Source: a virus (taxonomy: Duplodnaviria; Heunggongvirae; Uroviricota; Caudoviricetes). Taken from it: DNA of 64,000 bases. Where the stretch lies: IMG/VR virus record IMGVR_UViG_3300038393_002131; one strand, written 5' to 3'. A model generated the notes under the pieces. That model was not told where the DNA came from and ran no database searches. It saw nothing but the letters and a program-made list of their open reading frames with translations. Made by a program: the position numbers and the translations under genes. Shown here one piece after another: positions 4,059-63,282 of the stretch (positions are counted from its first letter, which is position 1; each line of letters begins with the position of its first letter).

Positions 4059-4955
4059 TCAGGCCGCGCCGAACAGGTCAAGGGCGTACTGCTTCGGGGT
4101 GCGCAGCGACGCCAGGACGTCCTCGCGCCACTGGACGGCGTACCGGAGGCAGTTGCGGCAGTCGCCACGGTGCGTGCATCCGGGCATCTTGATCTGCTCG
4201 CGGCGGGCCCCGTACGACCATGCGAGGGAGTCGGCCGAGACGAGGTTGTGGCCGTAGGAGGCGAGGCCCTGAGCCTTGACGCCGAACCCGTGGAGGCGCA
4301 GGCCGCGCGCGGCGAGCGTGCCGGTGATGAGGCCAATCTCGTCGGTGGACTGGCGGCGGCACACGGAGCCGAGGCCGACCAGCTGCTCGTCGGCGAGGTC
4401 GATGCCTGCGGCGGCGTACTGCTCGACGTGGGACAGGTAGTCGTCGAGGGTCCAGCCTTGGAGGACGGGCACCCACGGCGCGGCGGGGAAGTTCTCGCGC
4501 AGGTAGATCAGGTTCTCGATGGTCAGCTCTTGGTGGATCGCGACCGACAGGCCGGTGCCGGCGAACGTGTTGCCGTTCCACGTGCCGCCCGCGATGACGG
4601 CCGGCTCGCACATCCAGTCCTGCGGGGCGCACCACAGCGGGACCGCGCCGTCCTCCATGAACCGGTAGACCATGCCGCCGTACTCGTCCTCGCTCATCGT
4701 CCAGCGGCCGTGCTGCTGCAGCTCGGTGAAGCCACCGGAGTCGAGCGCCCACGCGCACCGGCCCTTGGGGAAGTCGTCGCCCTGGCGGCGGTACTTGGCG
4801 AGGGTGCGGGCCGACACGAACAGCGGCACCGGGCTCGTCTCCATCCAGCGCGGCATGTGGCAGCCGGTGAAGAACAGGAGGTGGCGGGCCGGGTCGTCGC
4901 TCGCACGGTCGGTCGTCCAAGCCGTCTCGACCTCGCGCCACAGCTGCTCGTACAT
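4059..4955 (-). CDS. DpdA/tRNA-guanine-transglycosylase-like protein (putative DNA 7-deazaguanine transglycosylase)
   Basis: Start re-assigned to M41 (MYEQLW) with RBS GAAGGAG; ALDSGGF resembles the TGT catalytic TDSGGFQ motif; C-terminal Cys/His cluster PGCTHRGDCRNC resembles the TGT Zn site. Confidence 0.55.
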   Translation of the reverse strand: MYEQLWREVETAWTTDRASDDPARHLLFFTGCHMPRWMETSPVPLFVSARTLAKYRRQGDDFPKGRCAWALDSGGFTELQQHGRWTMSEDEYGGMVYRFMEDGAVPLWCAPQDWMCEPAVIAGGTWNGNTFAGTGLSVAIHQELTIENLIYLRENFPAAPWVPVLQGWTLDDYLSHVEQYAAAGIDLADEQLVGLGSVCRRQSTDEIGLITGTLAARGLRLHGFGVKAQGLASYGHNLVSADSLAWSYGARREQIKMPGCTHRGDCRNCLRYAVQWREDVLASLRTPKQYALDLFGAA

Positions 4956-5043
4956 GGGGGGCTCCTTCGGTGGTGTCGGCCCCGCGACGCTCGGCGGGGC
5001 ATGGCCCAACCATGCCGGGCCGGGCCGACGGTGGCAACGGTTC

Positions 5044-5079
5044 CCGGCATGGTGCGACCCCCGCGCCGGAGCCATGGCG
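5044..5079 (-). terminator. terminator after the small Lys-rich gene
   Basis: GCGACCCCCGCGCC / GGCGCGGGGGTCGC 14-bp stem. Confidence 0.5.
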
Positions 5080-9416: not shown

Positions 9417-9779
9417 TCAGGCGACGGCGGGAAGGTCGGCCAGCTCCTGCGCGATGAACCCGACCTCCCAACGGTTGAGGCCGTTAGCGGCGTGCGTCGG
9501 CTTGCCGTGCACGTCCTGCCACGCGGGCAGGTCGTAGCGGGCCACGTCGTAGCGGTCGATGCCGTAGCCGCGCACCACGAGGACGGTGTCGTCGGCCCGG
9601 TAGATCGTGACGGCGAGGTCGACGTCGCGCGGGTCGAGCTCGACGTCGTACTCGATGCGCTCGTGCCCGAGGTACTGGCCGAGGACGTCGAGGCCGGTCA
9701 GCGACAGCAGGCGGGTGCGGCGGCTGACGGTGCCGGTGTGGGCCGGGGTGACGACCGGGATGGTGGACGTGGCGTGCAT
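9417..9779 (-). CDS. hypothetical protein (~120 aa)
   Basis: Start at M22 (MHATSTI); cassette at 9780-9865 (TTCCCT-N17-TACGCT, hairpin with AGAGCGTC loop). Confidence 0.5.
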   Translation of the reverse strand: MHATSTIPVVTPAHTGTVSRRTRLLSLTGLDVLGQYLGHERIEYDVELDPRDVDLAVTIYRADDTVLVVRGYGIDRYDVARYDLPAWQDVHGKPTHAANGLNRWEVGFIAQELADLPAVA

Positions 9780-9865: not shown

Positions 9866-10033
9866 TCAGCGCAACGTCACGACGAGGCCGGCCAGCATCA
9901 CCACCACCGCGGCGACGACGCCGGCCAGGGCGGGCCCTCCCCCGTCCGTGCGCGGCACCGCCCGCCGCCGGGCATCCCGGGCGGCGAGCGGCACGAACAG
10001 CGCAGCGGCGGCGAGCAGGGCCAGCAGGGTCAC
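9866..10033 (-). CDS. small two-helix membrane protein (~55 aa)
   Basis: GTG at 10033 overlaps the TGA of the methyltransferase gene (GTGA); strongly hydrophobic. Confidence 0.3.
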   Translation of the reverse strand: MTLLALLAAAALFVPLAARDARRRAVPRTDGGGPALAGVVAAVVVMLAGLVVTLR

Positions 10034-11727
10034 GCGGCGTAGGCGTCGGCGACGACGCCCATGATGTCGCGGGAGCACGGCGGGCACACAGCGTTCCCGG
10101 CCATCTTCACGAGGTCACGCTTCGAGGGGGTCTTGCCCTTCTCGTCCTTGACGTCCCACCGGTAGTTGCGCGGGAACGCCATGCCCGCGGCGGCCTCGTG
10201 CGGTTGCAGCATCCGCAGGTAGCACTCTGACACGAGCTCCTCGGCGCGGCGCAGGTCGCCCGGGTCGACAGCCGGGCGGGGCTTGCGCGGGTCGGCGTGC
10301 ACGAGGGACTGGTGCGCGGCCGTGGTGATGGTCCGCAGGTACTCGGTGACGGGCGTGCTCATCTCGGACCCGCCGTGGTTGTTCCGCATGATGAGGGCGT
10401 GGCGGTCAACGGTCGTGACCGTGTCCATCGCGTCGCTGACCGGCTTCGCCGTCTTGCCGTTGCCGTAGTAGGACTGGATCAGGCTCATGTTGCCGCCCGA
10501 GCCGGTGATGGTCCGCAGGAACTCGTCGACGGGCGTGGAGTGGCGGGCCGGGTCGCCGCCCGGGACGCCGTAGTGGCGGGTGATGAGGGCGTGGTGGTTG
10601 CCGGACGCGGTGAACGTCGCCGCGGGCTCGGTCAGCGGCCGCGTCTCGGAGTGGCCGCCGCGCAGCTCGGCCATGAACGGGGCCGTGGCGAGAGCGGTCT
10701 CGGCGCGGGTCGTCTGCGTGCGCAGCGCCTCCCACATCGCCTGCGCGTCCTTGCCGGCGCGGCCCTCGACGGGCACGGCCAGGGCGTACGCCTCGCGGGT
10801 CGTCAGGGTGCGCAGGGCCTCCTCGACGGAGCGGGCGTCCTCGTTCCACGTCCCGCCCGACGGGACGACGGTCGGCGTCATCCAGTAGCGGGCGATCCCG
10901 GCCGCGATCCTCGCGCGGGTCTTGGCCGCGAGGCGGTCGCCGATCAGGTCGCCCTTGAGGGACCAGTCAATCGCGGTGTAGGCGGGCAGGTAGCCCGGCT
11001 CGACGACGGTGCCGCACGCGCCGTGCACGTAGACGTAGGACTGGCGGTAGCGGCCGACGGTCGCGCCGCCCTTCCACGACTGGTTCGCCTCGATCATCGC
11101 GTCGCACTTCGGGCAGTACGCCTTCGGCCGGAGGATCCGGTCGAGGTCGGGGACCGGGTTGCCCTTGATCCACGCCACGATGAAGATGCGGTCGCGGGAC
11201 TGCGGGGCGGGCATCCCGAACGTCTGAGCGTGCATCGCGTTGAGCGACACGACCCGGAACTCGTAGCCGAGCGCGGTCAGCTGGCGGCGCCACTCGTACC
11301 ACGCGAGCCGGTACTTCGCCTGGACGGCAATGTCGACGACGTTCTCCACGATCACGACGGAGTAGCGGTGGTGCTCGACGAACTTGAGCACGTCGAACAT
11401 CAGCAGCCGGGAGCGGTGCGTCGCCTCGTCCGAGAGCGGGTCGGCGAACAGGCCTTCCTCGATCTTCTCGCGGGCCTTGCCCGATGCCTGGGACCACTTC
11501 GTGCACTCCGGGGAGGCCCACAGGACGTCGGTGCGCTTGAAGAACGACGGGCGTTCCATGTGGAGGTCGACGGCGGCGTGGTCGGTGTCGGGGTGGTTCT
11601 GGTTGTGGACCTCGATCGCGAGCTTCCAGTGGTTCGCGGCCTGCGTCACCCGGACACCGGGGATCTGCACCATGCCGGTCGAGGACCCGCCTGCGCCTGC
11701 GAAGTGGTCAGTGACGGTGAGGGACAT
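10030..11727 (-). CDS. DNA (cytosine-5)-methyltransferase
   Basis: Motif I FAGAGG, motif IV-like SPECTKWS, motif VI VIVENV; 565 aa. Confidence 0.85.
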   Translation of the reverse strand: MSLTVTDHFAGAGGSSTGMVQIPGVRVTQAANHWKLAIEVHNQNHPDTDHAAVDLHMERPSFFKRTDVLWASPECTKWSQASGKAREKIEEGLFADPLSDEATHRSRLLMFDVLKFVEHHRYSVVIVENVVDIAVQAKYRLAWYEWRRQLTALGYEFRVVSLNAMHAQTFGMPAPQSRDRIFIVAWIKGNPVPDLDRILRPKAYCPKCDAMIEANQSWKGGATVGRYRQSYVYVHGACGTVVEPGYLPAYTAIDWSLKGDLIGDRLAAKTRARIAAGIARYWMTPTVVPSGGTWNEDARSVEEALRTLTTREAYALAVPVEGRAGKDAQAMWEALRTQTTRAETALATAPFMAELRGGHSETRPLTEPAATFTASGNHHALITRHYGVPGGDPARHSTPVDEFLRTITGSGGNMSLIQSYYGNGKTAKPVSDAMDTVTTVDRHALIMRNNHGGSEMSTPVTEYLRTITTAAHQSLVHADPRKPRPAVDPGDLRRAEELVSECYLRMLQPHEAAAGMAFPRNYRWDVKDEKGKTPSKRDLVKMAGNAVCPPCSRDIMGVVADAYAA

Positions 11728-15782: not shown

Positions 15783-16829
15783 TCACGCCGACACGCTCGA
15801 CGCGGCCAAGGCGCGCTCGTCGATCACCGCGGCGAGCCGAGCCCCGACCCACTCCCCCAACTTCGCGTGGACACAGTTGCCGAGCATCGTGAACCGGGCC
15901 GACGGCGGCACCCCGGGCACATCGGTCCAGCCGTCGTCGAACCCGGACAGCCGCTCCCACTCCGTGAGGGTCAGAGTGCGGAGCCGGCCGTCGTCGACGA
16001 GCAAGTGCTTCTGCCGCAGCGGGCCGCCCGGGTCGTAGCAGGCGAGGGTGTTCGCGACCTCGGACCGGACCCACGTCTCCCAGCCGCCCTCCTCGATGGA
16101 GGCACGGGCGTTCGCGGACTTGCGCCACACGGTCACGGCGTCGCGGCGACGTCCTCCACTAGGGCGAGCAGCTCCGGGTCGACTCGCGCCATGCCCGGGG
16201 AGAGCAGCCGCGGCAGGAACTTCCGGGCCTGTGCCGGTGTCATCCAGCACTGACCAGGCGACGGTGGGATCTCCCGAACGATGTCCGACCAAGATGATTC
16301 GCGGACGGTCTTGGAGGGTGTCAAGGTGTCCCCCGTCCAGCAGGCGCCACGCGTACCCATACCCGAGGTCCCCCAAGGCACTTTGCGCGTGCCACCAATC
16401 GCGGCCGCCGTTAACGGTGAGAGACCCGTCGGGATTCTCGATGACGACCCACTCGGGTCGGGCCTCGTCGACGAGCCTGATCTGCTCGTAGAACAGGCTC
16501 GAGTCTTTGCCTCGGAGGCCGGTTCGTTTCGTGGCTCCCTTGCTGGTCTGCTTGCAGGGGAATCCCCCCACAAGGACAGTTGGGTCACCGAGGTCTGCTC
16601 CGTTGACATTGCGCACGTCCTCCAAGATCGGGATGCCTGGGAAGCGCGTGGCGAGCACGGAGCGGGCGTGGACGTCCTTCTCCACCATGACGGTGCAGCG
16701 CATGCGGGCGTGCATTCCGAGGTCGAGTCCTCCGATGCCGGAGAACAGGGACGCGAACGTCGTGGGTGTGTGCATGGGTTGGCGCTTCCTGTGTGTCGCG
16801 CGGGGTCGCTTTCCCGCGTCACAGCCCAT
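15783..16829 (-). CDS. DNA (cytosine-5)-methyltransferase, Dcm-like
   Basis: Motif I FASLFSGIGGLDLG, motif IV GFPCKQTS, motif VI-like VVIENP; 348 aa. Confidence 0.8.
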   Translation of the reverse strand: MGCDAGKRPRATHRKRQPMHTPTTFASLFSGIGGLDLGMHARMRCTVMVEKDVHARSVLATRFPGIPILEDVRNVNGADLGDPTVLVGGFPCKQTSKGATKRTGLRGKDSSLFYEQIRLVDEARPEWVVIENPDGSLTVNGGRDWWHAQSALGDLGYGYAWRLLDGGHLDTLQDRPRIILVGHRSGDPTVAWSVLDDTGTGPEVPAAAALPGHGASRPGAARPSGGRRRDAVTVWRKSANARASIEEGGWETWVRSEVANTLACYDPGGPLRQKHLLVDDGRLRTLTLTEWERLSGFDDGWTDVPGVPPSARFTMLGNCVHAKLGEWVGARLAAVIDERALAASSVSA

Positions 16830-17506: not shown

Positions 17507-17947
17507 TTAGCGACCTAACGCTAGTGACACAAGGGAATCGTCGTCGGAGTAGACGACGCGCTCGATACCGGCGGCCGTGAGGAGCTTCTGGCAACCGGGG
17601 CATGGCGGGTCGGTGATGTACGCCGTCGCTCCTCGAGCGTCGGCCCGGTCGGCGTACAGGAGTGCGTTCGCCTCGGCGTGGACGGCGACGCAGTACCCGG
17701 GCGAGCCGGGCCGGTCGTAGTCGCCGAGGCCGGCCACCTGCTCGTAGGTGAGGAGGCCTCGCGGGCACTCCCCCGCCAGGCATGACGCTCCCCCGGACGG
17801 GCCGCCGTTGTAGCCGGTGCTGACGATCCGGTGGTCCTTGACGAGGACGCAGCCGACGGTGCGGCGGCGGCAGTCGGCTCGAGCGGCAACGGCCGTCGCG
17901 ATGCCGGCGAAGTAGTCGTCCCAGCCGGGTCGGGTCAGTTGTTCCAT
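17507..17947 (-). CDS. dCMP/cytidine deaminase-family protein
   Basis: Start at M72 (MEQLTRPG); zinc ligand motifs HAEANAL and PCPGCQ. Confidence 0.8.
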   Translation of the reverse strand: MEQLTRPGWDDYFAGIATAVAARADCRRRTVGCVLVKDHRIVSTGYNGGPSGGASCLAGECPRGLLTYEQVAGLGDYDRPGSPGYCVAVHAEANALLYADRADARGATAYITDPPCPGCQKLLTAAGIERVVYSDDDSLVSLALGR

Positions 17948-18423
17948 GCGTTCCTCGCGTCGTTGTCGGGTGGGGGCGGGCAGGGGGTGCGTGTGCCGTC
18001 GTTGGCGAACAGGGCCCAGCCGTGCGCGGTGCGCACCGGGACGCGCTCGGCGTCGACGAACTGGCCGTTGCGCGGGATCGCGTAGCCGTCGCGCTCGAAC
18101 GTCTCCCGGTCGTGGTCCTTGTCGCGGTGGCAGCCGTCGCCGGCGTTGCCGGACCCGCACAGGGTGAGCAGCCAGCCAGGGCCGTTGATCGTGGCGGCGA
18201 GTTCGCCGTGGGTGCCGCCCGCTCCGCGGCCGCGGCGGTGGTCGAGGTCCCGGGCGGGTTTGCCGCAGCGGACGCAGCGGCCGCCGTCGCGCGCGTGCAC
18301 GAGTGCGCGCGTGTCTGTGGTGGGGCCGGTGTCGCGGTGCGCGCGTGGTGCGCGCGTGGTGCGCGCGTGCGGTGCGCGCGCAGGCGCGGGGCTGGTGCGC
18401 GCGGCCGGGGCCGCGGCCTTCAT
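17935..18423 (-). CDS. HNH endonuclease-like protein (~162 aa)
   Basis: Start at M93 (MKAAAP); CVRCGKPARDLDHRRGRG...N...CHRDKDH pattern; the N-terminal region is encoded by GTGCGCGCG tandem repeats. Confidence 0.5.
   Translation of the reverse strand: MKAAAPAARTSPAPARAPHARTTRAPRAHRDTGPTTDTRALVHARDGGRCVRCGKPARDLDHRRGRGAGGTHGELAATINGPGWLLTLCGSGNAGDGCHRDKDHDRETFERDGYAIPRNGQFVDAERVPVRTAHGWALFANDGTRTPCPPPPDNDARNAWNN
18290..18420. repeat. tandem GTG(G/C)TGCGCGCG repeats inside the HNH gene 5' region
   Basis: gtggtgcgcgcgtggtgcgcgcgtgcggtgcgcgcgcagg..., encoding an HARTTRAPRAH-like reiterated peptide. Confidence 0.5.
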
Positions 18424-26119: not shown

Positions 26120-26815
26120 ATGATCCTCGCCCAACGGCGCAAGGCCGGCATGCCCGAAGATGAGGCCCGCCGGGCCGACATCGAAGCCCTAGCACAACGA
26201 GCTGCAGCAGGCTCGGAGGACGCCCTGAGCGACCTGTTCGAGACGCTGCACGACGCGACGTACCGGTTCATCTACCGGCAGGTTCGCAACCCACATCTGG
26301 CCGAGGACCTCGACGGCAAGACGTGGATGAAAATCGTCCACAAGATCAGCACCTACACCACGTCGCCATCCGGGTTCGAGTCGTGGGTCTACACCATCGC
26401 CCGCAACACTGTGCGCGACGAGTTCCGCTCCATGCCCCGCTCCCGTGAGATCCCGACGGCCGACATGCTCTCGGTGGGCATGCCGACCAGCCTCGTCTCG
26501 CAGGACGCCACGCCGGAGGAGACCGCCCTGGACGCCGAGCGCGTCGGCGAGATGCGGGTGGCTATCGCGAAGGCGCTCGAGTCGCTCCCGCCGAACCAGC
26601 GGCGCGCGCTCGTGCTGCGGTTTTTCGACGGGCTCGACGTAGTGCAGGTGGCGTCCGTGATGCAAACGACGCCGTCGAACGTTCGTAATTTACAGAGCCG
26701 TGGTGCACGTCGGCTCGCGTCCCAACTACCCGACCTCCGACTGCTGTCCATGAGGACTGTCGGTGGGGAAAAGGTGATCGCTAATGCCCAAGGAGAACGC
26801 CATGCGACTCGATGA
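26120..26815 (+). CDS. ECF-type sigma-70 family RNA polymerase sigma factor
   Basis: Region-2-like YRFIYRQVRNPHLAEDLDGKTWMKI and region-4 HTH RRALVLRFFDGLDVVQVASVMQTTPSNVRNLQSRGARRL. Confidence 0.85.
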   Translation: MILAQRRKAGMPEDEARRADIEALAQRAAAGSEDALSDLFETLHDATYRFIYRQVRNPHLAEDLDGKTWMKIVHKISTYTTSPSGFESWVYTIARNTVRDEFRSMPRSREIPTADMLSVGMPTSLVSQDATPEETALDAERVGEMRVAIAKALESLPPNQRRALVLRFFDGLDVVQVASVMQTTPSNVRNLQSRGARRLASQLPDLRLLSMRTVGGEKVIANAQGERHATR

Positions 26816-30099: not shown

Positions 30100-30741
30100 T
30101 CAGTCGTCCTTTCCGGGGATGAACTCGTGGTAGCAGTTGGGGCACATGACGATCCGGTCCTTGGCCGGGGTCGGGGTGTCGTCCCCGAGGAGGTCGTCCT
30201 CGTCGTCGTCGACACGGGCTGGCTCGGTGTCGTCGTCGAGGCCGTCGCGGTCCGGGTCGTAGACGCGGAACAGGTCGTCGAGCTCGTCGGCGCCGAAGCC
30301 GATGCCGTCGAACAGGGCCGCGTCGGCGGCGTGCACGTCGTGCAGCATCTCGGCCAGGAGGCGGTCATCCCAGCCGCCGGCGACGACCAGCTGGTTGTGC
30401 AGGATGATGAACGCCTCGGCGTGGGCGTCGCTCTTGGACGACCATCCGCGCTGGATGGGGACGAGCCACTCGCCGTCCTCGTCGATCATGATGCCGTCGG
30501 GGATCTGCTCGCCGCGGGCCTTCATGTCGACGAGGGCCTTCGTGCGGCCGTGGCCGGCGACGAGCCGCTGCGTGCGCTCGTCGAGGATGGCCGCGTCGGC
30601 GAAGCCGTGCTCCTCGATCGAGGCGTTGATGTCCGGATCGGAGTGCTTCTTCGGGTTCCGGAAGGCTGGGGGCACGTCGCAGAGCCGCACGTAGTCGATG
30701 CGGCGCGGTGCCAGGGGAATGCGAGAGGGCTCGGTCACCAC
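30100..30741 (-). CDS. ParB-like nuclease-domain protein
   Basis: DYVRL...NPKKHSD...IEEHGF...LVAGHGRTKAL matches the ParB N-terminal fold; C-terminal CPNC zinc ribbon; start uncertain (GTG ~30741). Confidence 0.6.
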   Translation of the reverse strand: MVTEPSRIPLAPRRIDYVRLCDVPPAFRNPKKHSDPDINASIEEHGFADAAILDERTQRLVAGHGRTKALVDMKARGEQIPDGIMIDEDGEWLVPIQRGWSSKSDAHAEAFIILHNQLVVAGGWDDRLLAEMLHDVHAADAALFDGIGFGADELDDLFRVYDPDRDGLDDDTEPARVDDDEDDLLGDDTPTPAKDRIVMCPNCYHEFIPGKDD

Positions 30742-30936
30742 AGAAACGTGGACGACCGAGCCCTCTTGTGTCGCGTGCTCGTCAGCGGACCCGCAGCGCC
30801 TCACGGGCCGGGCCGGGGCGAGCCGTCTCGTTGCGGCGGAAGATCCACCGCTCCAAGCGGATCCACCACGGCGTCGGCAGCTCGCGCGCCGGACGTGTCG
30901 TGCCGTCGGGCAGTCGCTCGAAGTTCTGCGGCCCGG

Positions 30937-31236
30937 TCACTGCTGGGCGTCCTTGCAGGACGGGTCGGCGACCATGCTGATGGCGCGGGCCTCGCTCTGG
31001 CCGGAACCGACCGTCGAGGTGCTGTAGCGGATGCCATCGACGCAGACGGTGGCGATGTTGCCGTAGCCGTCAGGCATTTCGATGATCGTGACCGGCTTGT
31101 TGATGCGGGGCCCGATGGGGGCGTCCTTGAACGTCTCCTGCGCCTTGTCCATGAAGCCGGACGCCCCGCAGGCTCCGAGGAGCCCGACGGCGGCGGTCAC
31201 GGCGACGAGCGCGGCGGCCGCGCGGCGGCGGGTCAC
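30937..31236 (-). CDS. small lipoprotein (~99 aa)
   Basis: GTG at 31236 overlaps the TGA of the SPFH gene (GTGA); signal peptide with lipobox AAVGLLGACG. Confidence 0.5.
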   Translation of the reverse strand: MTRRRAAAALVAVTAAVGLLGACGASGFMDKAQETFKDAPIGPRINKPVTIIEMPDGYGNIATVCVDGIRYSTSTVGSGQSEARAISMVADPSCKDAQQ

Positions 31237-32138
31237 TTCGCCCCCACGAGGATGCTCGCCCCCGGACCGCCCATGCCGCAGTTGAAGGTGGCCGGGAGCG
31301 GGCCGTTCTTCTGGACGTCCCACGCGTTGACGACCTCGAGGCAGTAGCGGACCTGCGCGGCCGGGGTCAGTGCGCCCTCGCGCTCACGCAGCTTGGCCGT
31401 GTCGGCGTCGATCTTGGCGCGCTCCTGCTCGGCGAGAGCCGTCGCCACGTTGTTGTTCGCGATGACGGTCCGCTCGAGGCTCTTGGCCGTGGCGGCATCG
31501 AGCTGGACGCCCTTGATCGAGACGGAGTCGATGAGGATGCCGTCGTCGACGAGGCGGGCCCCCAGGCCCGTCTTGACCGCGTCGCTGATGGGCCTGATGT
31601 TGGCGCCGGCACGGGCAGCGTTCGGGGCGTACTGGCCGATGACCTCACGGAAGGCGTCCTGAGCCTCGGAGAGCACGAGCGAGTCGCGGACGGTGTCGAA
31701 GGTCTTGTACTTCTTCCAGAGGTCCTCGGCCTTGGCCGGGTTGATGCGCCAGCGGACGACGGCGTTGACGATGCCGTTGCCGCCCGAGCTGTTCTTGTCG
31801 GTGCCGGCGAACGCGACGCTGACGGCGTTGCCCTTGGAGTCGTCGAGGTCGGACAGGTCGAGCGGCTGCGCCAGGGTGGAGAACTCCTCGACCTCGGACC
31901 ATGGCGAGAGCATGTGGGCGCCGGACTGGATGGTGTCGCGGTACTGCCCGAAGGAGGTCTGGATCGCGACGGCGCGAGCATCGACCTTCGTGAAGGACGC
32001 GAAGCCGGTCACGAGGAGCAGGAGGACGAACGCGACGGCGGCGATGGCCGCGGCACCGCCGTTGCGGCCGACGATCGCGACGGCAGTGGTGATGAGCACC
32101 ACGAGCAGCGCGACGACAGCAAAGATCACGTAGAGCAT
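31233..32138 (-). CDS. SPFH/band-7 (stomatin/prohibitin-like) membrane protein
   Basis: Start at M124 (MLYVIFAVVALLVVL TM helix); SPFH-like core (TSFGQYRD...GAHMLSPW) and coiled-coil C-terminus; class-I leader hairpin at ~32165. Confidence 0.65.
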   Translation of the reverse strand: MLYVIFAVVALLVVLITTAVAIVGRNGGAAAIAAVAFVLLLLVTGFASFTKVDARAVAIQTSFGQYRDTIQSGAHMLSPWSEVEEFSTLAQPLDLSDLDDSKGNAVSVAFAGTDKNSSGGNGIVNAVVRWRINPAKAEDLWKKYKTFDTVRDSLVLSEAQDAFREVIGQYAPNAARAGANIRPISDAVKTGLGARLVDDGILIDSVSIKGVQLDAATAKSLERTVIANNNVATALAEQERAKIDADTAKLREREGALTPAAQVRYCLEVVNAWDVQKNGPLPATFNCGMGGPGASILVGAK

Positions 32139-32262
32139 GACGGGTTTGGGTTCCCTTCTCAGGTGTCGGGTGACCGGGACGCTTGTCCGGTCAGTCGCAG
32201 CATAGAGGAAGCCCGCGCGTTGGGGGGTTCCAACGCGCGGGCTCCGGTCGTGTGGGTGTCGT

Positions 32263-32499
32263 TCAGACGTAGGCGTTCTCGCGGCGCCAGTTGCGGGCGT
32301 GGTTCTTCGCGTGGGCCCGGGCCCGGGACACATGCCCGATGTGCCAGTGGTTGCCCCACAGGCACTTGTACGCCCGGAACTTCCCGCCGTACTGCGCGCG
32401 CATCGAGGGGATGCCAGCCGAGGCGTCAGCCTTCGTCTCGTGCTGCTGCTTGCCGAGGCACATCGACTCGAACGACTCGTCGTTGTGGTGGTGGGCCAT
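32263..32499 (-). CDS. small His/Cys-rich protein (78 aa; possible HNH-like metal-binding)
   Basis: MAHHHNDESFESMCLGKQQHE...KCLWGNHWHIGH; leader hairpin at ~32530. Confidence 0.4.
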   Translation of the reverse strand: MAHHHNDESFESMCLGKQQHETKADASAGIPSMRAQYGGKFRAYKCLWGNHWHIGHVSRARAHAKNHARNWRRENAYV

Positions 32500-32631
32500 G
32501 GGTACATCGCTCCTTCGGTGTCGAGCCCGGGACGCTTTCCGGGCTGTTGGGGATGACGGTAGAACGAGCGGGGGGCACCGTCAACGGTTCTCGTCGACGA
32601 CGCCCCCGGCTTGGTTGCGGCACAGGGCCGG

Positions 32632-33636
32632 TCAGGTGCGGGCCTTGATGTAGGCGACCATGTCGTTCCACCGCTGCACGTCGGCGGTGTTCGTCGACAG
32701 GATGCTGGAAAGGTCGTGGCCGCGGTCGGCGGCGACGACGGTCTTGTGCTCCTGGCCCGCCTTCGTCAGCCAGTAGTCGGTGGCGGTGAGCGCGGACACC
32801 GGTTCGACGCCGTCGTTCTCGCCCTTGATCGCGTAGATGGCGGGCTTGTTGGCGCCGTAGTACGTCTCGGGCTTGAAGCTCGTCCACTTGCCGCCGCACA
32901 TCGACCACGTCGGCTCGTAGGAGCAGCCGATGGTGGAGGTCATGTACCCGAAGGACTTGACCATGGTCGGCGTCGACGGGTCGCCGGTGTTGTAGCCGAG
33001 GACGATGTCGGCGGTGCGGTGCGGCTGCAGGACGGCGCCGACAGACGCGGCGACGGTGACGCTGTTGTAGAAGCCAGCGCCGAGGGTCACCAAGTGCCCG
33101 CCGGCCGAGTGGCCGAACGCTGCGACGCGGGTCGAGGATGACCCGAACTGTGCCGCGTTGGTCTTGAGCCACTGGATCGCGAGCTCGGTGTCGATGCGCT
33201 GCGCCGGCCAGCGGTCGCCGGGGTTGACAGTGCCGGAGCCGTCCGGGCGGTACTGGTCGGCGGCGAGGCGGTAGTCGATGTTGTAGACGACGAACCCGGC
33301 TGCGAAGAACTTCTGCGCGACCTGCGTGATGGTCGACTCGGTGCGGTAGGAGTTGTGCCACCAGCCGCCGTGCACGACGACGATCGCGGGGTGGGTGCCG
33401 GGTGCCCAATCGGCGTCGTAGTAGACGTCGCCGACTTGGTCCTCGGGGCTCGAGGTGCCGTACTGGTAGGTGGCGACGGTGGTGCCGTCGCTGAGGGCCT
33501 TGATGATCCGCTTCGGGGAGGTGGCTGTCGGGGTGGCCGCGCCGGTCGCGGGTGCCGTCAGCACGATCGCGGCGACGGTGGCGAGGATAGCGACGAGGGC
33601 CGCGAGGATGGACGTGCGGCGACTTCGAGAGCTCAT
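32632..33636 (-). CDS. secreted alpha/beta-hydrolase esterase/lipase (Tat-type signal)
   Basis: Start re-assigned to MSSRSRRTSILAALVAILATVAA (RR signal) with a leader hairpin at ~33660-33685; HGGG-type oxyanion motif VVHGGWW and nucleophile elbow GHSAGG. Confidence 0.7.
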   Translation of the reverse strand: MSSRSRRTSILAALVAILATVAAIVLTAPATGAATPTATSPKRIIKALSDGTTVATYQYGTSSPEDQVGDVYYDADWAPGTHPAIVVVHGGWWHNSYRTESTITQVAQKFFAAGFVVYNIDYRLAADQYRPDGSGTVNPGDRWPAQRIDTELAIQWLKTNAAQFGSSSTRVAAFGHSAGGHLVTLGAGFYNSVTVAASVGAVLQPHRTADIVLGYNTGDPSTPTMVKSFGYMTSTIGCSYEPTWSMCGGKWTSFKPETYYGANKPAIYAIKGENDGVEPVSALTATDYWLTKAGQEHKTVVAADRGHDLSSILSTNTADVQRWNDMVAYIKART

Positions 33637-33716
33637 GACGTGGGTGTTCTTTCTGCTGGGCGCCCGGGACGGTGAGTGTCCGATTCGGGCGTGGTGGATG
33701 GATTTGAGCATGAAAG

Positions 33717-33808
33717 GGCCCGCAGCTGTCCGCGACCCGCGGGATTTGAACCCGCGCGCCCCTTCGCGGAAAGAGGCATGCCTACCTGGCCGTCAGCTGC
33801 GGGCCCAA
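33717..33808 (-). other. tRNA-like structured element (T-arm-like GGTTCAAATCC hairpin inside a 13-bp stem); not a canonical tRNA
   Basis: Minus-sense CGCGGGTTCAAATCCCGCG hairpin, AGGCATGCCT palindrome and outer GGGCCCGCAGCTG/CAGCTGCGGGCCC stem; no acceptor, D or anticodon arms could be fitted. Confidence 0.3.
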
Positions 33809-33835: not shown

Positions 33836-33853
33836 CGTTGTGTCGCGTCCTCA
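33836..33853 (+). repeat. class-II motif copy (overlaps the stop of 33851..34132)
   Basis: CGTTGTGTCGCGTCCTCA. Confidence 0.55.
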
Positions 33854-34132
33854 GCCGACGGGCTCCCACTCGCTGCGCACGACCCACGCCCGGAACTGGC
33901 CGTGCCACGCGTCCGGGCTCGGGCAGAGGTACGGGTTGCAGTGCATGAGCATCGGCGGGAATCCGAGGCTGCTCGTCTCGAGGTGGCCCCAGCCGCGGTC
34001 GAGGCGGACCTTGACGCCCGTGGCGGCGACGGCCCGCGCCCACTCGGGCGCGCCGAGCGCGGCGTGCACCTCGGCCATGGCGGCGTTGATCTCGGCCGGC
34101 GTCATGACGGTTGTGTCAGTGAGCGTCGCCAC
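33851..34132 (-). CDS. hypothetical protein (93 aa)
   Basis: Its stop is embedded in the class-II motif TGAGGACGCGACACAACG. Confidence 0.4.
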   Translation of the reverse strand: MATLTDTTVMTPAEINAAMAEVHAALGAPEWARAVAATGVKVRLDRGWGHLETSSLGFPPMLMHCNPYLCPSPDAWHGQFRAWVVRSEWEPVG

Positions 34133-61983: not shown

Positions 61984-63282
61984 TCACGCCGGGACGGTCC
62001 AGCTGCCCACGACGAAGCTCTCCGGGCGAGCGACCTCGAGCGCCAGGCGCTCGGTCGCGAGGAAGGTGCACGCGCCGTCCGTGAAGTTGGTCCCGTGCTC
62101 CGTGCTCGCGACGACCTTGACGCTCTCGCGGTCGTGCAGCTGGGCGCCGGTGCCGAACGCGCCGACGAGGAACTTCGCGTCGTCCATGGCGGTCGTCTCG
62201 ACGACCCGGAGGCGCCAGACGCGCTTCTCGGCGCCGATCGCGACGGAGACGGCGACACGGAACGCACCCGTGCTGTCCTCCTCGACCTCCACGGCCTCCC
62301 ACATCGTCGGCGAGAGAACGATGCCGTTCATCTCGTACTCCGCGAGGAGACCCTTGGTGATCGCGCGGCGGATCTGGACCGAGTAGCCGTCGGCGGCGAG
62401 ACCCGTGTAGGCCTGGACGCCGGGGCTGTTGAACAGACCCGTGATCTTCTCGCCCGACCCCGTGGAGTGCAGGAGGTCGTTGTCCTCGGCGTACTTGACG
62501 CCCTCGACGAGGCGGTTGTTGATGAACGACTTGAGTCGCCCGTCGTCCGCGAGGATGTTGACGTGCGCGTCGAGCGAGTGCTTGATCTCCGCGACGGGGA
62601 ACAGCACGGGCTCGAGGCGCAGCTTCGACTTCGGCGCGCGGCCGAACACGTCGTCGTCGGCGCCGGTGGCCGGGGACACGCCGTCGGCGGCGTAACGCTG
62701 CGCGACCTGCGCGGCGTTGTTCGTCCAGCCGAGCTCACGGAGCCCCGTCAGGACGGACGCCTTCGTGGTCGACTTCGGGAACAGGTCCCGAATGTGCATC
62801 TTGCGGTAGGCGCGCTCCGCGATGCCGAGGTCCTGGTTGGTGCCGAGGGCCTGGAACTCGTGGCTGCCGGCCGCGAAGTTGTAGAGGGACTTGCCCTCGA
62901 GCTGGACGGTGATGTTCGACACGTTGTCGAACCCGGCCTTCGCGGCGCGCTGGTAGGCCTCGGCGTCGGTGAACGCGTCACCGAGCGACTTGCCCTCGAG
63001 GCGGCCGGCGCCGGCGTCGAGCGCGGCCTCGGACGGACGCTCGGGGGCGTTGAGGTAGTCGTAGCCCTCGGCGACCTTCTCGACGGCGTCGATGAAGCTC
63101 TTGGCCTCGGCGGCCTCCATGACGGCGGTCTTGTACTTCGTGTACTCCTCGCGGGAGATCTCGAAGCGGCCCTTCTCGTCGGTCTTGAAACCGGAGGCGA
63201 TGCCCTCGATGTCGGCGTTCTTCTGCTCGAGGTCGGCCTTGGCCGCGGCGAGCATGCTCTTGTCGAGCGTGGCGGTGCTCAT
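61984..63282 (-). CDS. major capsid protein (HK97-like, with an N-terminal scaffold-like helical segment)
   Basis: 432 aa; N-terminal coiled-coil-like ~100 aa then a mixed alpha/beta domain; own promoter region and strong terminator. Confidence 0.75.
   Translation of the reverse strand: MSTATLDKSMLAAAKADLEQKNADIEGIASGFKTDEKGRFEISREEYTKYKTAVMEAAEAKSFIDAVEKVAEGYDYLNAPERPSEAALDAGAGRLEGKSLGDAFTDAEAYQRAAKAGFDNVSNITVQLEGKSLYNFAAGSHEFQALGTNQDLGIAERAYRKMHIRDLFPKSTTKASVLTGLRELGWTNNAAQVAQRYAADGVSPATGADDDVFGRAPKSKLRLEPVLFPVAEIKHSLDAHVNILADDGRLKSFINNRLVEGVKYAEDNDLLHSTGSGEKITGLFNSPGVQAYTGLAADGYSVQIRRAITKGLLAEYEMNGIVLSPTMWEAVEVEEDSTGAFRVAVSVAIGAEKRVWRLRVVETTAMDDAKFLVGAFGTGAQLHDRESVKVVASTEHGTNFTDGACTFLATERLALEVARPESFVVGSWTVPA

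Follow-up and report, generated by a model that had tools for sequence, protein, structure and literature searches.

Structure and module content of a putative accessory slot in an uncultured Gilgamesh-like actinophage

The locus described here lies in a 64,000-nucleotide stretch of viral DNA (Caudoviricetes; IMG/VR record IMGVR_UViG_3300038393_002131), termed the window in what follows, which is a piece of the genome of an uncultured soil phage. It contains six genes on the minus strand. In reading order these encode a putatively exported alpha/beta-hydrolase (the esterase), a mini-protein rich in cysteine and histidine, an SPFH/Band-7 membrane protein, a small lipoprotein, a peptide of 52 amino acids (aa; orf52) and a ParB-like protein. 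A structured RNA lies upstream of the esterase gene, and a small-terminase-like gene (TerS) follows the ParB-like gene (Table 1). The initial annotation of the window had joined five of these open reading frames (ORFs) into a single envelope-directed cluster. All five are present on the minus strand at the coordinates of Table 1, where independent metagenome gene calls agree; the sixth gene, orf52, had been overlooked. With moderate confidence, and as a structural and modular description, the region is regarded here as a variable accessory slot, a site at which 'moron' genes are inserted into the early/middle part of a large genome. The phage is uncultured and akin to Streptomyces phage Gilgamesh. 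The slot is limited upstream by the conserved structured RNA and downstream by a conserved ParB-like/small-terminase-like module, and its genes form three modules rather than one unit.

Table 1. Features of the slot and related features elsewhere in the window (dG, folding free energy; z, z-score of the fold)
Feature	Position	Strand	Remarks
Cloverleaf-like RNA with pseudoknot, 91 nt	33716-33806	-	~80 nt upstream of esterase start codon; upstream edge of slot
Esterase (alpha/beta-hydrolase), 334 aa, BD-FAE/carbohydrate-esterase type, predicted N-terminal signal peptide	32632-33636	-	Pfam, alignment and PDB matches
Soluble Cys/His-rich mini-protein, 78 aa	32263-32499	-	follows esterase in three lineages (window, L023, L085)
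GC-rich hairpin, 16 bp	32208-32245	-	3' of mini-protein gene; dG -34.6 kcal/mol, z -5.8
Leader hairpin motif CCGGACAAGCGTCCCGG, then GACAC and ribosome-binding site	32174-32190	-	upstream of SPFH gene; precedes many genes of the phage
SPFH/Band-7 membrane protein, 301 aa	31233-32138	-	Band_7 and phrog_200; two N-terminal hydrophobic segments
Small lipoprotein, 99 aa (mature ~76 aa)	30937-31236	-	lipobox; GTG start overlaps SPFH stop
orf52, soluble basic/aromatic peptide, 52 aa	30782-30940	-	GTG start overlaps lipoprotein stop (second GTGA); in metagenome gene calls
Hairpin around ribosome-binding site and GTG start of ParB-like gene	30725-30765	-	dG -37.7 kcal/mol, z -5.5
ParB-like N-terminal-domain protein, 213 aa, C-terminal CxxC	30100-30741	-	phrog_620; Gilgamesh gp84
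Small-terminase-like protein (TerS), 213 aa	29455-30096	-	phrog_4102 1.4e-25
Leader hairpin starts	34702, 32541, 32188, 29013, 22849, 8759, 6733, 4003, 2921	-	repeated leader
Major capsid protein	61984-63282	-	first in minus-strand reading order (high to low), then tape measure protein and tail genes

Limits and modules of the slot

Slot content was compared by local tblastn against fetched relatives (L numbers are our handles for the loci compared). The nearest cultured phage is Gilgamesh (129 kb; NC_073461; L022; host Streptomyces lividans), with a capsid identity of 60%. In Gilgamesh the RNA element is followed directly by the ParB-like gene (gp84), the TerS gene (gp85), SSB and a divergent block of hypothetical and sigma-factor genes, and neither an esterase nor an SPFH gene was found in the compared stretch of that genome (62-111 kb). 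On the contig of L089 and L101 the esterase gene follows the RNA element and is itself followed directly by the ParB-like gene, the mini-protein being absent in L089. In L023 (same contig as L088) and L085 both the esterase and the mini-protein genes stand between the RNA element and the ParB-like gene. The SPFH-lipoprotein pair occurs in the slot only in the window lineage and in the short contig L073, and is directly upstream of the ParB-like gene in both. The esterase module, with or without the mini-protein, and the module of SPFH, lipoprotein and orf52 are found independently of each other in relatives.

This arrangement refutes the single five-gene envelope cluster, as the ParB-like gene is syntenic with TerS and the two accessory modules are independent. 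The accompanying claim that all five products are extracytoplasmic or sit at the membrane is wrong in two cases, the mini-protein and the ParB-like protein, neither of which has a hydrophobic segment. It holds for the esterase, the SPFH protein and the lipoprotein, three of the six genes, which appear envelope-directed as had been claimed.

The downstream limit consists of the ParB-like and TerS genes. The predicted ParB-like identity, proposed at the outset, rests on matches to PHROG families (phrog_620, 6e-25; phrog_498, 3e-23) and on 49% identity to Gilgamesh gp84. The PADLOC MTase_II N-terminus also matches (9e-13), but there is no Pfam ParB match at E<=0.1. The TerS-like protein shares 45% identity with the annotated terminase small subunit of Gilgamesh (gp85). 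The order ParB-TerS-SSB is kept in L023, L085, L089 and Gilgamesh. In the circularly permuted Microbacterium phages Terij, Margaery and MementoMori the ParB-like homologue is gene 1, immediately ahead of the terminase gene; across gp84 and the Microbacterium proteins, identity in the N-terminal domain is 38-49% and the position immediately upstream of the small terminase is the same. The ParB-like gene therefore belongs to a ParB-like/TerS module, and the other genes of the slot are inserted ahead of it. The start of the ParB-like gene is enclosed in a stable hairpin, the equivalent of which in L023 (7977-8021) shows compensatory changes (z -6.9). This hairpin could serve to control translation, or as a terminator.

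The upstream limit is the RNA element. It folds into a 13-bp closing stem and three hairpins, the third of which is T-loop-like, and six bases of the second hairpin loop (UCCGCG) form a pseudoknot with a 3' segment (CGCGGA). Copies were identified in L023 (6389-6478), L085 (~470-560), L089 (~9556-9655) and Gilgamesh (17855-17960). All 34 of the 34 proposed pairs are standard in four lineages, with changes on both sides at seven pairs; the closing stem and arm 3 account for three each and arm 2 for one. In 500 shuffles this level of covariation was never reached, and shifting the register gave nothing comparable. Minimum free energy (MFE) z-scores range from -3.0 to -4.3, and G-U pairs assign the element to the gene strand. 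A local covariance-model search recovered this fold in Gilgamesh as well, immediately ahead of gp84 (E 4e-6), where the pseudoknot partners (UGCGAG/CUCGCA) differ from those of the window at two pairs, on both sides. The pairs in Gilgamesh were taken from the alignment to the covariance model and from its MFE fold, the MAFFT alignment not being in structural register. Compensatory changes are present in five lineages, Gilgamesh included. A pattern scan of metagenomes returned 36 loci, four of which are true copies (L085, L088, L089 and L101); the others are chance GC-rich matches. The position directly upstream of gp84 indicates that the RNA element heads the ParB-like/TerS module, the accessory genes lying between the RNA and the ParB-like gene. 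Its occurrence in a cultured phage makes it directly studiable.

The element has no match in Rfam, where the best hits are sub-threshold tRNA-like families at E>1, and ARAGORN predicts no tRNA at this position. A reading of its GGTTCAAATCC motif as a tRNA or attP remnant was rejected on account of the ARAGORN result, the lack of any integrase family among the window ORFs scanned, and the covarying structure. A candidate c-di-GMP-II-GCG riboswitch at 33849-33923 (minus strand) was also set aside; it scores 24 bits against a gathering threshold of 47.9, lies inside the 3' end of a 93-aa gene and is probably a chance match. In the Microbacterium phages Cinna and Terij there is no intergenic room for the element upstream of the ParB-like genes.

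Within the slot, the mini-protein and SPFH genes are headed by a common leader architecture, of which the esterase gene has a degenerate copy. This architecture is shared by at least nine minus-strand genes of the window and consists of a -35-like box (aACCCTTGCC or TTGACG), ~17 nt, a -10-like TAnnnT, the hairpin GGACAAGCGTCCC, GACAC, a ribosome-binding site and ATG. The hairpin motif has 15 matches in the window against 2.9 expected. The 16-bp hairpin between the mini-protein and SPFH genes is likely a terminator or a module boundary. A scan for consensus promoters and terminators reported no promoter of the sigma-70 type; it also passed over the 16-bp hairpin, whose T-run is weak. The SPFH cassette has GACAC on either side. 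The repeated hairpin-GACAC leaders flanking the modules suggest recombination joints, and the modules would probably move between genomes by recombination at these sites. The slot illustrates the swapping of accessory modules between conserved leader sequences. The phage also encodes a sigma-like factor of its own (~26189-26734, plus strand).

Products of the accessory modules

The proteins of the slot extend known kinds, as new members or variants; the novelty lies in the pairing of SPFH protein and lipoprotein and in the structured RNA. The first module would supply an exported serine hydrolase of carbohydrate-esterase type, with a Sec-type signal and a probable disulfide, together with a cytoplasmic mini zinc protein. 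The second would be a self-contained cassette with its own leader, encoding an SPFH scaffold, a coupled small lipoprotein and a coupled 52-aa peptide.

The alpha/beta-hydrolase assignment of the esterase, made in the initial annotation, is confirmed by Pfam, where BD-FAE (PF20434) scores 6.1e-23 (81.9 bits, gathering cut-off 26.8) and Abhydrolase_3 (2e-9) and COesterase also match. The protein carries the motifs HGGW and GHSAGG. In an alignment of 20 homologues H89-G90-G91, S177 (of GHSAGG), D275 and H307 are invariant, giving a conserved Ser-Asp-His triad (S177, D275, H307), and C238 and C247 are nearly invariant. The nearest PDB structures are acetyl xylan esterases/carbohydrate esterases (6xyc and 6tkx, ~5e-22). 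With these enzymes it shares the HGG oxyanion motif, the GxSxG nucleophile elbow and the Asp and His residues, but it belongs to a distinct HGGWWHN subfamily found mostly on phage-like contigs.

The hydrophobic N-terminus of the esterase spans residues 6-35, and the mean Kyte-Doolittle hydropathy of its 18-residue hydrophobic (h-) region is 2.82. Export of the protein, as predicted from its N-terminus, is well supported because such signal-like N-termini, and the two conserved cysteines, run through nearly all of the family. A Tat-type signal had been proposed at first, and this part of the claim is doubtful. The twin arginine is present (SRRTSIL) but is followed by T-S-I rather than the F-L-K pattern of the Tat motif (S/T-R-R-x-F-L-K, with a moderately hydrophobic h-region), and most of the 20 homologues lack it, having KK, RK or single basic residues instead. 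A very hydrophobic h-region favours Sec over Tat. These features favour a signal that is probably Sec-like rather than Tat.

Homologues with at least 50% identity to the esterase occur in only 2 of 185,579 species genomes. By sequence, the protein appears related to rare chromosomal esterases of Actinomycetes. In a metagenome-assembled Actinomycetes genome (64% identity) the gene lies between a GerE regulator and MoaA, and in Intrasporangium zincisolvens (53%) the translated neighbours resemble a membrane transporter, a phosphoribosyltransferase and a subtilisin-type protease. Several other homologues are on phage-like contigs of 25-136 kb. Three of them stand directly after tRNA genes, in the tRNA-rich accessory arms of lower-GC phage contigs (L025 5764-5834, L028 5703-5915 and L077 2721-2987). 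One of these contigs also encodes a Ro60/TROVE-vWA protein (L028 1-353). Ro60/TROVE proteins usually partner Y-RNA-type, tRNA-like RNAs; no TROVE match was found among the window ORFs scanned against Pfam. The subfamily is almost confined to phage-like contigs, and the enzyme could be one that modifies wall glycans and alters receptors.

The mini-protein belongs to a widespread family of 55-100 aa (67 cluster representatives at E<1e-3; phrog_14788, 4e-7), and some larger proteins hold several copies of the unit. The family consensus is C-x-G-K ... Y-x-C-x-[FW]-[CG]-x-x-W-H-[IV]-G-H, which points to a probable small zinc-binding domain with a C2H2- or C3H-type site. No match to the family was found in Pfam or the PDB.

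The SPFH assignment is secure on domain searches, which gave Pfam Band_7 (PF01145; 60.6 bits, cut-off 23.6, E 2.6e-16, residues 51-242) and phrog_200 (2.9e-44), in agreement with the initial annotation. The N-terminal membrane anchor consists of two hydrophobic windows within residues 1-54 and is kept in homologues, the short loop between them always containing K or R. In the homologues of L043 and L068 these segments give way to a lipobox, and most homologues keep a pair of cysteines near the C-terminus. Taken with the positive-inside rule, these features would put the SPFH domain on the outer side of the cytoplasmic membrane, where the lipoprotein would also be found. Streptomyces phage proteins of phrog_200 (Blueeyedbeauty gp130 and Circinus gp161) are 44-55% identical and have the same double hydrophobic segment and Cys pair; the window gene differs in being the first of a three-gene translationally coupled cassette.

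The SPFH protein has homologues in 365 records of sequenced actinophages, 255 of them from Mycobacterium and 89 from Streptomyces phages, and most go under the name 'band-7-like membrane protein'. Across the hundreds of actinophage genomes with an annotated Band-7/SPFH gene, no product has to our knowledge been assigned a function, and the literature search turned up no functional study of these phage proteins. The recurrent, translationally coupled lipoprotein and the predicted outward topology would offer a concrete, testable handle on what these proteins do. Gp49 of Mycobacterium phage LeBron, a protein of the same family, is described as 'NKF; TMD, Band-7-like' and was mildly cytotoxic on overexpression (PMC13148394).

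The lipoprotein gene is coupled to the SPFH gene by the GTGA overlap reported in the initial annotation, which can be read directly in the sequence. The signal MTRRRAAAALVAVTAAVGLLGAC comprises a basic n-region, a hydrophobic h-region and the lipobox L-G-A-C, which fits the pattern [LVI][ASTVI][GAS]C. Its identity as a lipoprotein is upheld by 14 homologues, in which L20, A22 and C23 of the lipobox and two further cysteines are invariant. An AlphaFold2 (AF2) model shows a small beta domain at a mediocre predicted local distance difference test (pLDDT) score of 65, and a Foldseek search of this model against the PDB returned nothing below E 0.4. The small, phage-encoded superinfection-exclusion lipoproteins Llp of phage T5 and Ltp of phage TP-J34 are also expressed outside the structural genes, and the mature domain of the window protein is small, disulfide-containing and, in the AF2 model (pLDDT 65), beta-rich. 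This likeness is one of logic only. Searches of PHROG, Pfam and PDB related the window lipoprotein to no characterised protein.

The third gene of the cassette, orf52, encodes a peptide with no hydrophobic segment. In the relative L073 (933-1316; P0026) an orf52-like peptide (ERMPDGSTRPAR..PTPWWIRLER) forms the first part of an in-frame fusion with the lipoprotein, placed before its signal peptide. Since a relative has a homologous peptide, orf52 is probably real. The peptide is fused in L073 and a separate downstream ORF in the window, and the two arrangements therefore represent the same two parts rearranged; the fusion links orf52 to the lipoprotein.

SPFH proteins commonly work with an operon partner, as in HflKC-FtsH and SPFH-NfeD. 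The window pair had been likened to such bacterial pairs, and this comparison holds in part. Among ~40 lipoprotein loci (not de-replicated), the SPFH and lipoprotein genes adjoin or overlap in the window, L073, L058 (SPFH downstream) and L066 (SPFH upstream), that is, in both orders, and at most 2 kb separates the two genes in L035, L043 and L068. The tight adjacency spans three divergent phage lineages. On a rough estimate this proximity is above chance for genomes of 50-150 kb, the expectation being at most 1 of 40 loci. The window pair resembles the bacterial ones (e.g. QmcA/YbbJ, HflK/HflC-FtsH) in combining an SPFH protein with a small membrane-associated partner encoded by an overlapping gene, and its SPFH domain is probably outward-facing, as in HflK/C. 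The likeness fails in that the pairing is facultative and in the nature of the partner, which would be a lipid-anchored small beta protein (AF2, pLDDT 65). Neither it nor orf52 has a Pfam match, hence there is no NfeD domain, and the cluster contains a single Band_7 gene in place of the tandem paralogous pair of HflK/HflC.

Possible functions

A possible function of the two modules, which we advance tentatively, is envelope remodelling or exclusion. During infection the phage would assemble a ring of SPFH protein, together with the partner lipoprotein, at the outer face of the cytoplasmic membrane, while the esterase, if secreted as predicted, would act in the wall and deacetylate its substrate there. 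Both modules would change the envelope of the infected cell, most plausibly blocking entry or adsorption of other phages or of the phage's own progeny, or destroying receptors.

Several observations weigh against this proposal. A phage homologue of the esterase (L077) has no signal peptide, and therefore the family is not always exported. The topology of the SPFH protein depends on the positive-inside rule and on homologues. No SPFH gene lies within 5 kb at 33 of the ~40 lipoprotein loci, and the SPFH genes sampled from Streptomyces phages with genomes of ~126-133 kb (e.g. Circinus and Blueeyedbeauty) have no lipoprotein neighbour. Because most loci are unpaired, the SPFH-lipoprotein partnership is recurrent but facultative, not obligatory. 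Finally, no PADLOC defence model matches the esterase, the mini-protein, the SPFH protein, the lipoprotein or orf52.

A more novel reading, which we consider doubtful, comprises two linked proposals. The SPFH protein and the 'DAP-motif' lipoprotein, with orf52, would form an undescribed outer-face scaffold that excludes superinfecting phages or protects the membrane. The 91-nt RNA would represent a new cis-regulatory or tRNA-like class that controls the packaging genes and marks a hot spot for envelope morons.

The genes of the slot could also be unrelated passengers, neutral or nearly neutral hitch-hikers at a recombination-prone site with no common envelope purpose. Such a history would fit the differences in slot content among close relatives and the scatter of the esterase and lipoprotein families over many unrelated sites in other phages, frequently amid tRNA genes. 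However, catalytic residues, lipobox and Cys pairs are strictly conserved across divergent homologues, and both the translational coupling and the recurrence of neighbouring SPFH and lipoprotein genes in distant lineages speak for selection. We judge this explanation unlikely.

Modulation of a host membrane protease is improbable. Here the SPFH protein would mimic HflK/HflC and enclose or regulate host FtsH or another complex, with the lipoprotein as cofactor, and so stabilise membrane proteins of the phage or the host during infection. The Band_7 domain, the N-terminal anchor and the predicted outward-facing domain fit the HflK/C layout, as does the general habit of SPFH proteins of working with an operon partner. 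The single SPFH gene and the partner without an NfeD domain do not, nothing in this analysis ties the protein to FtsH, and most phage SPFH genes have no lipoprotein.

A lysis accessory, in which the esterase would be LysB-like or wall-loosening and the SPFH protein and lipoprotein would tune holin action or membrane breakdown late in infection, is very improbable, and less likely than envelope remodelling or exclusion. An exported serine hydrolase, two membrane-located proteins and the position of the lysin A gene of Gilgamesh, which lies in the same part of that genome three genes past TerS, would suit it. Against it, the window contains no homologue of that lysin A, and the searches detected no family of lysins or holins beside the cluster or elsewhere in the window. 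One or both modules are also missing in relatives, which is unexpected for lysis machinery. The enzyme had initially been suggested to be a LysB-like lipid esterase, a suggestion that fails on its best families (BD-FAE and Abhydrolase_3), its acetyl-xylan esterase structures and the absence of any cutinase or PE-PPE (LysB-type) match in Pfam or PHROG searches. Mycobacteriophage LysB, a mycolylarabinogalactan esterase, is likewise a phage-encoded serine esterase with GxSxG. The window protein, unlike LysB, lies outside a lysis cassette, with no lysin gene nearby, and has a predicted signal peptide; its closest relatives are associated with Streptomyces and Intrasporangium-type organisms, which are non-mycolate hosts.

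Surrounding genome

The window has a G+C content of ~70%, and nearly all of its genes are on the minus strand. Proteins identical to those of the window are encoded on JGI and Logan soil-metagenome contigs, the longest of which is 134 kb. A nucleotide search of the region against sequenced phages gave no match, and no paper on Gilgamesh was found in the literature.

In minus-strand order the tail genes are followed by a WhiB-like gene, a replication initiator, a DnaC-like loader, a DUF2637 membrane protein and two small genes. Past the slot genes come the small-terminase-like gene, SSB and a divergent block ending with the sigma-factor gene. Beyond this are genes for DNA methyltransferases, a deaminase and a DpdA-like queuine tRNA-ribosyltransferase. 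These encode, all on the minus strand, the DpdA-like protein (4059-5075), two DNA methyltransferases (10030-11727 and 15783-16829) and a dCMP-deaminase-like protein (17507-18160). The presence of DpdA-like, methyltransferase and deaminase genes suggests modified DNA, possibly containing 7-deazaguanine, as in Gilgamesh (gp114 and gp116).

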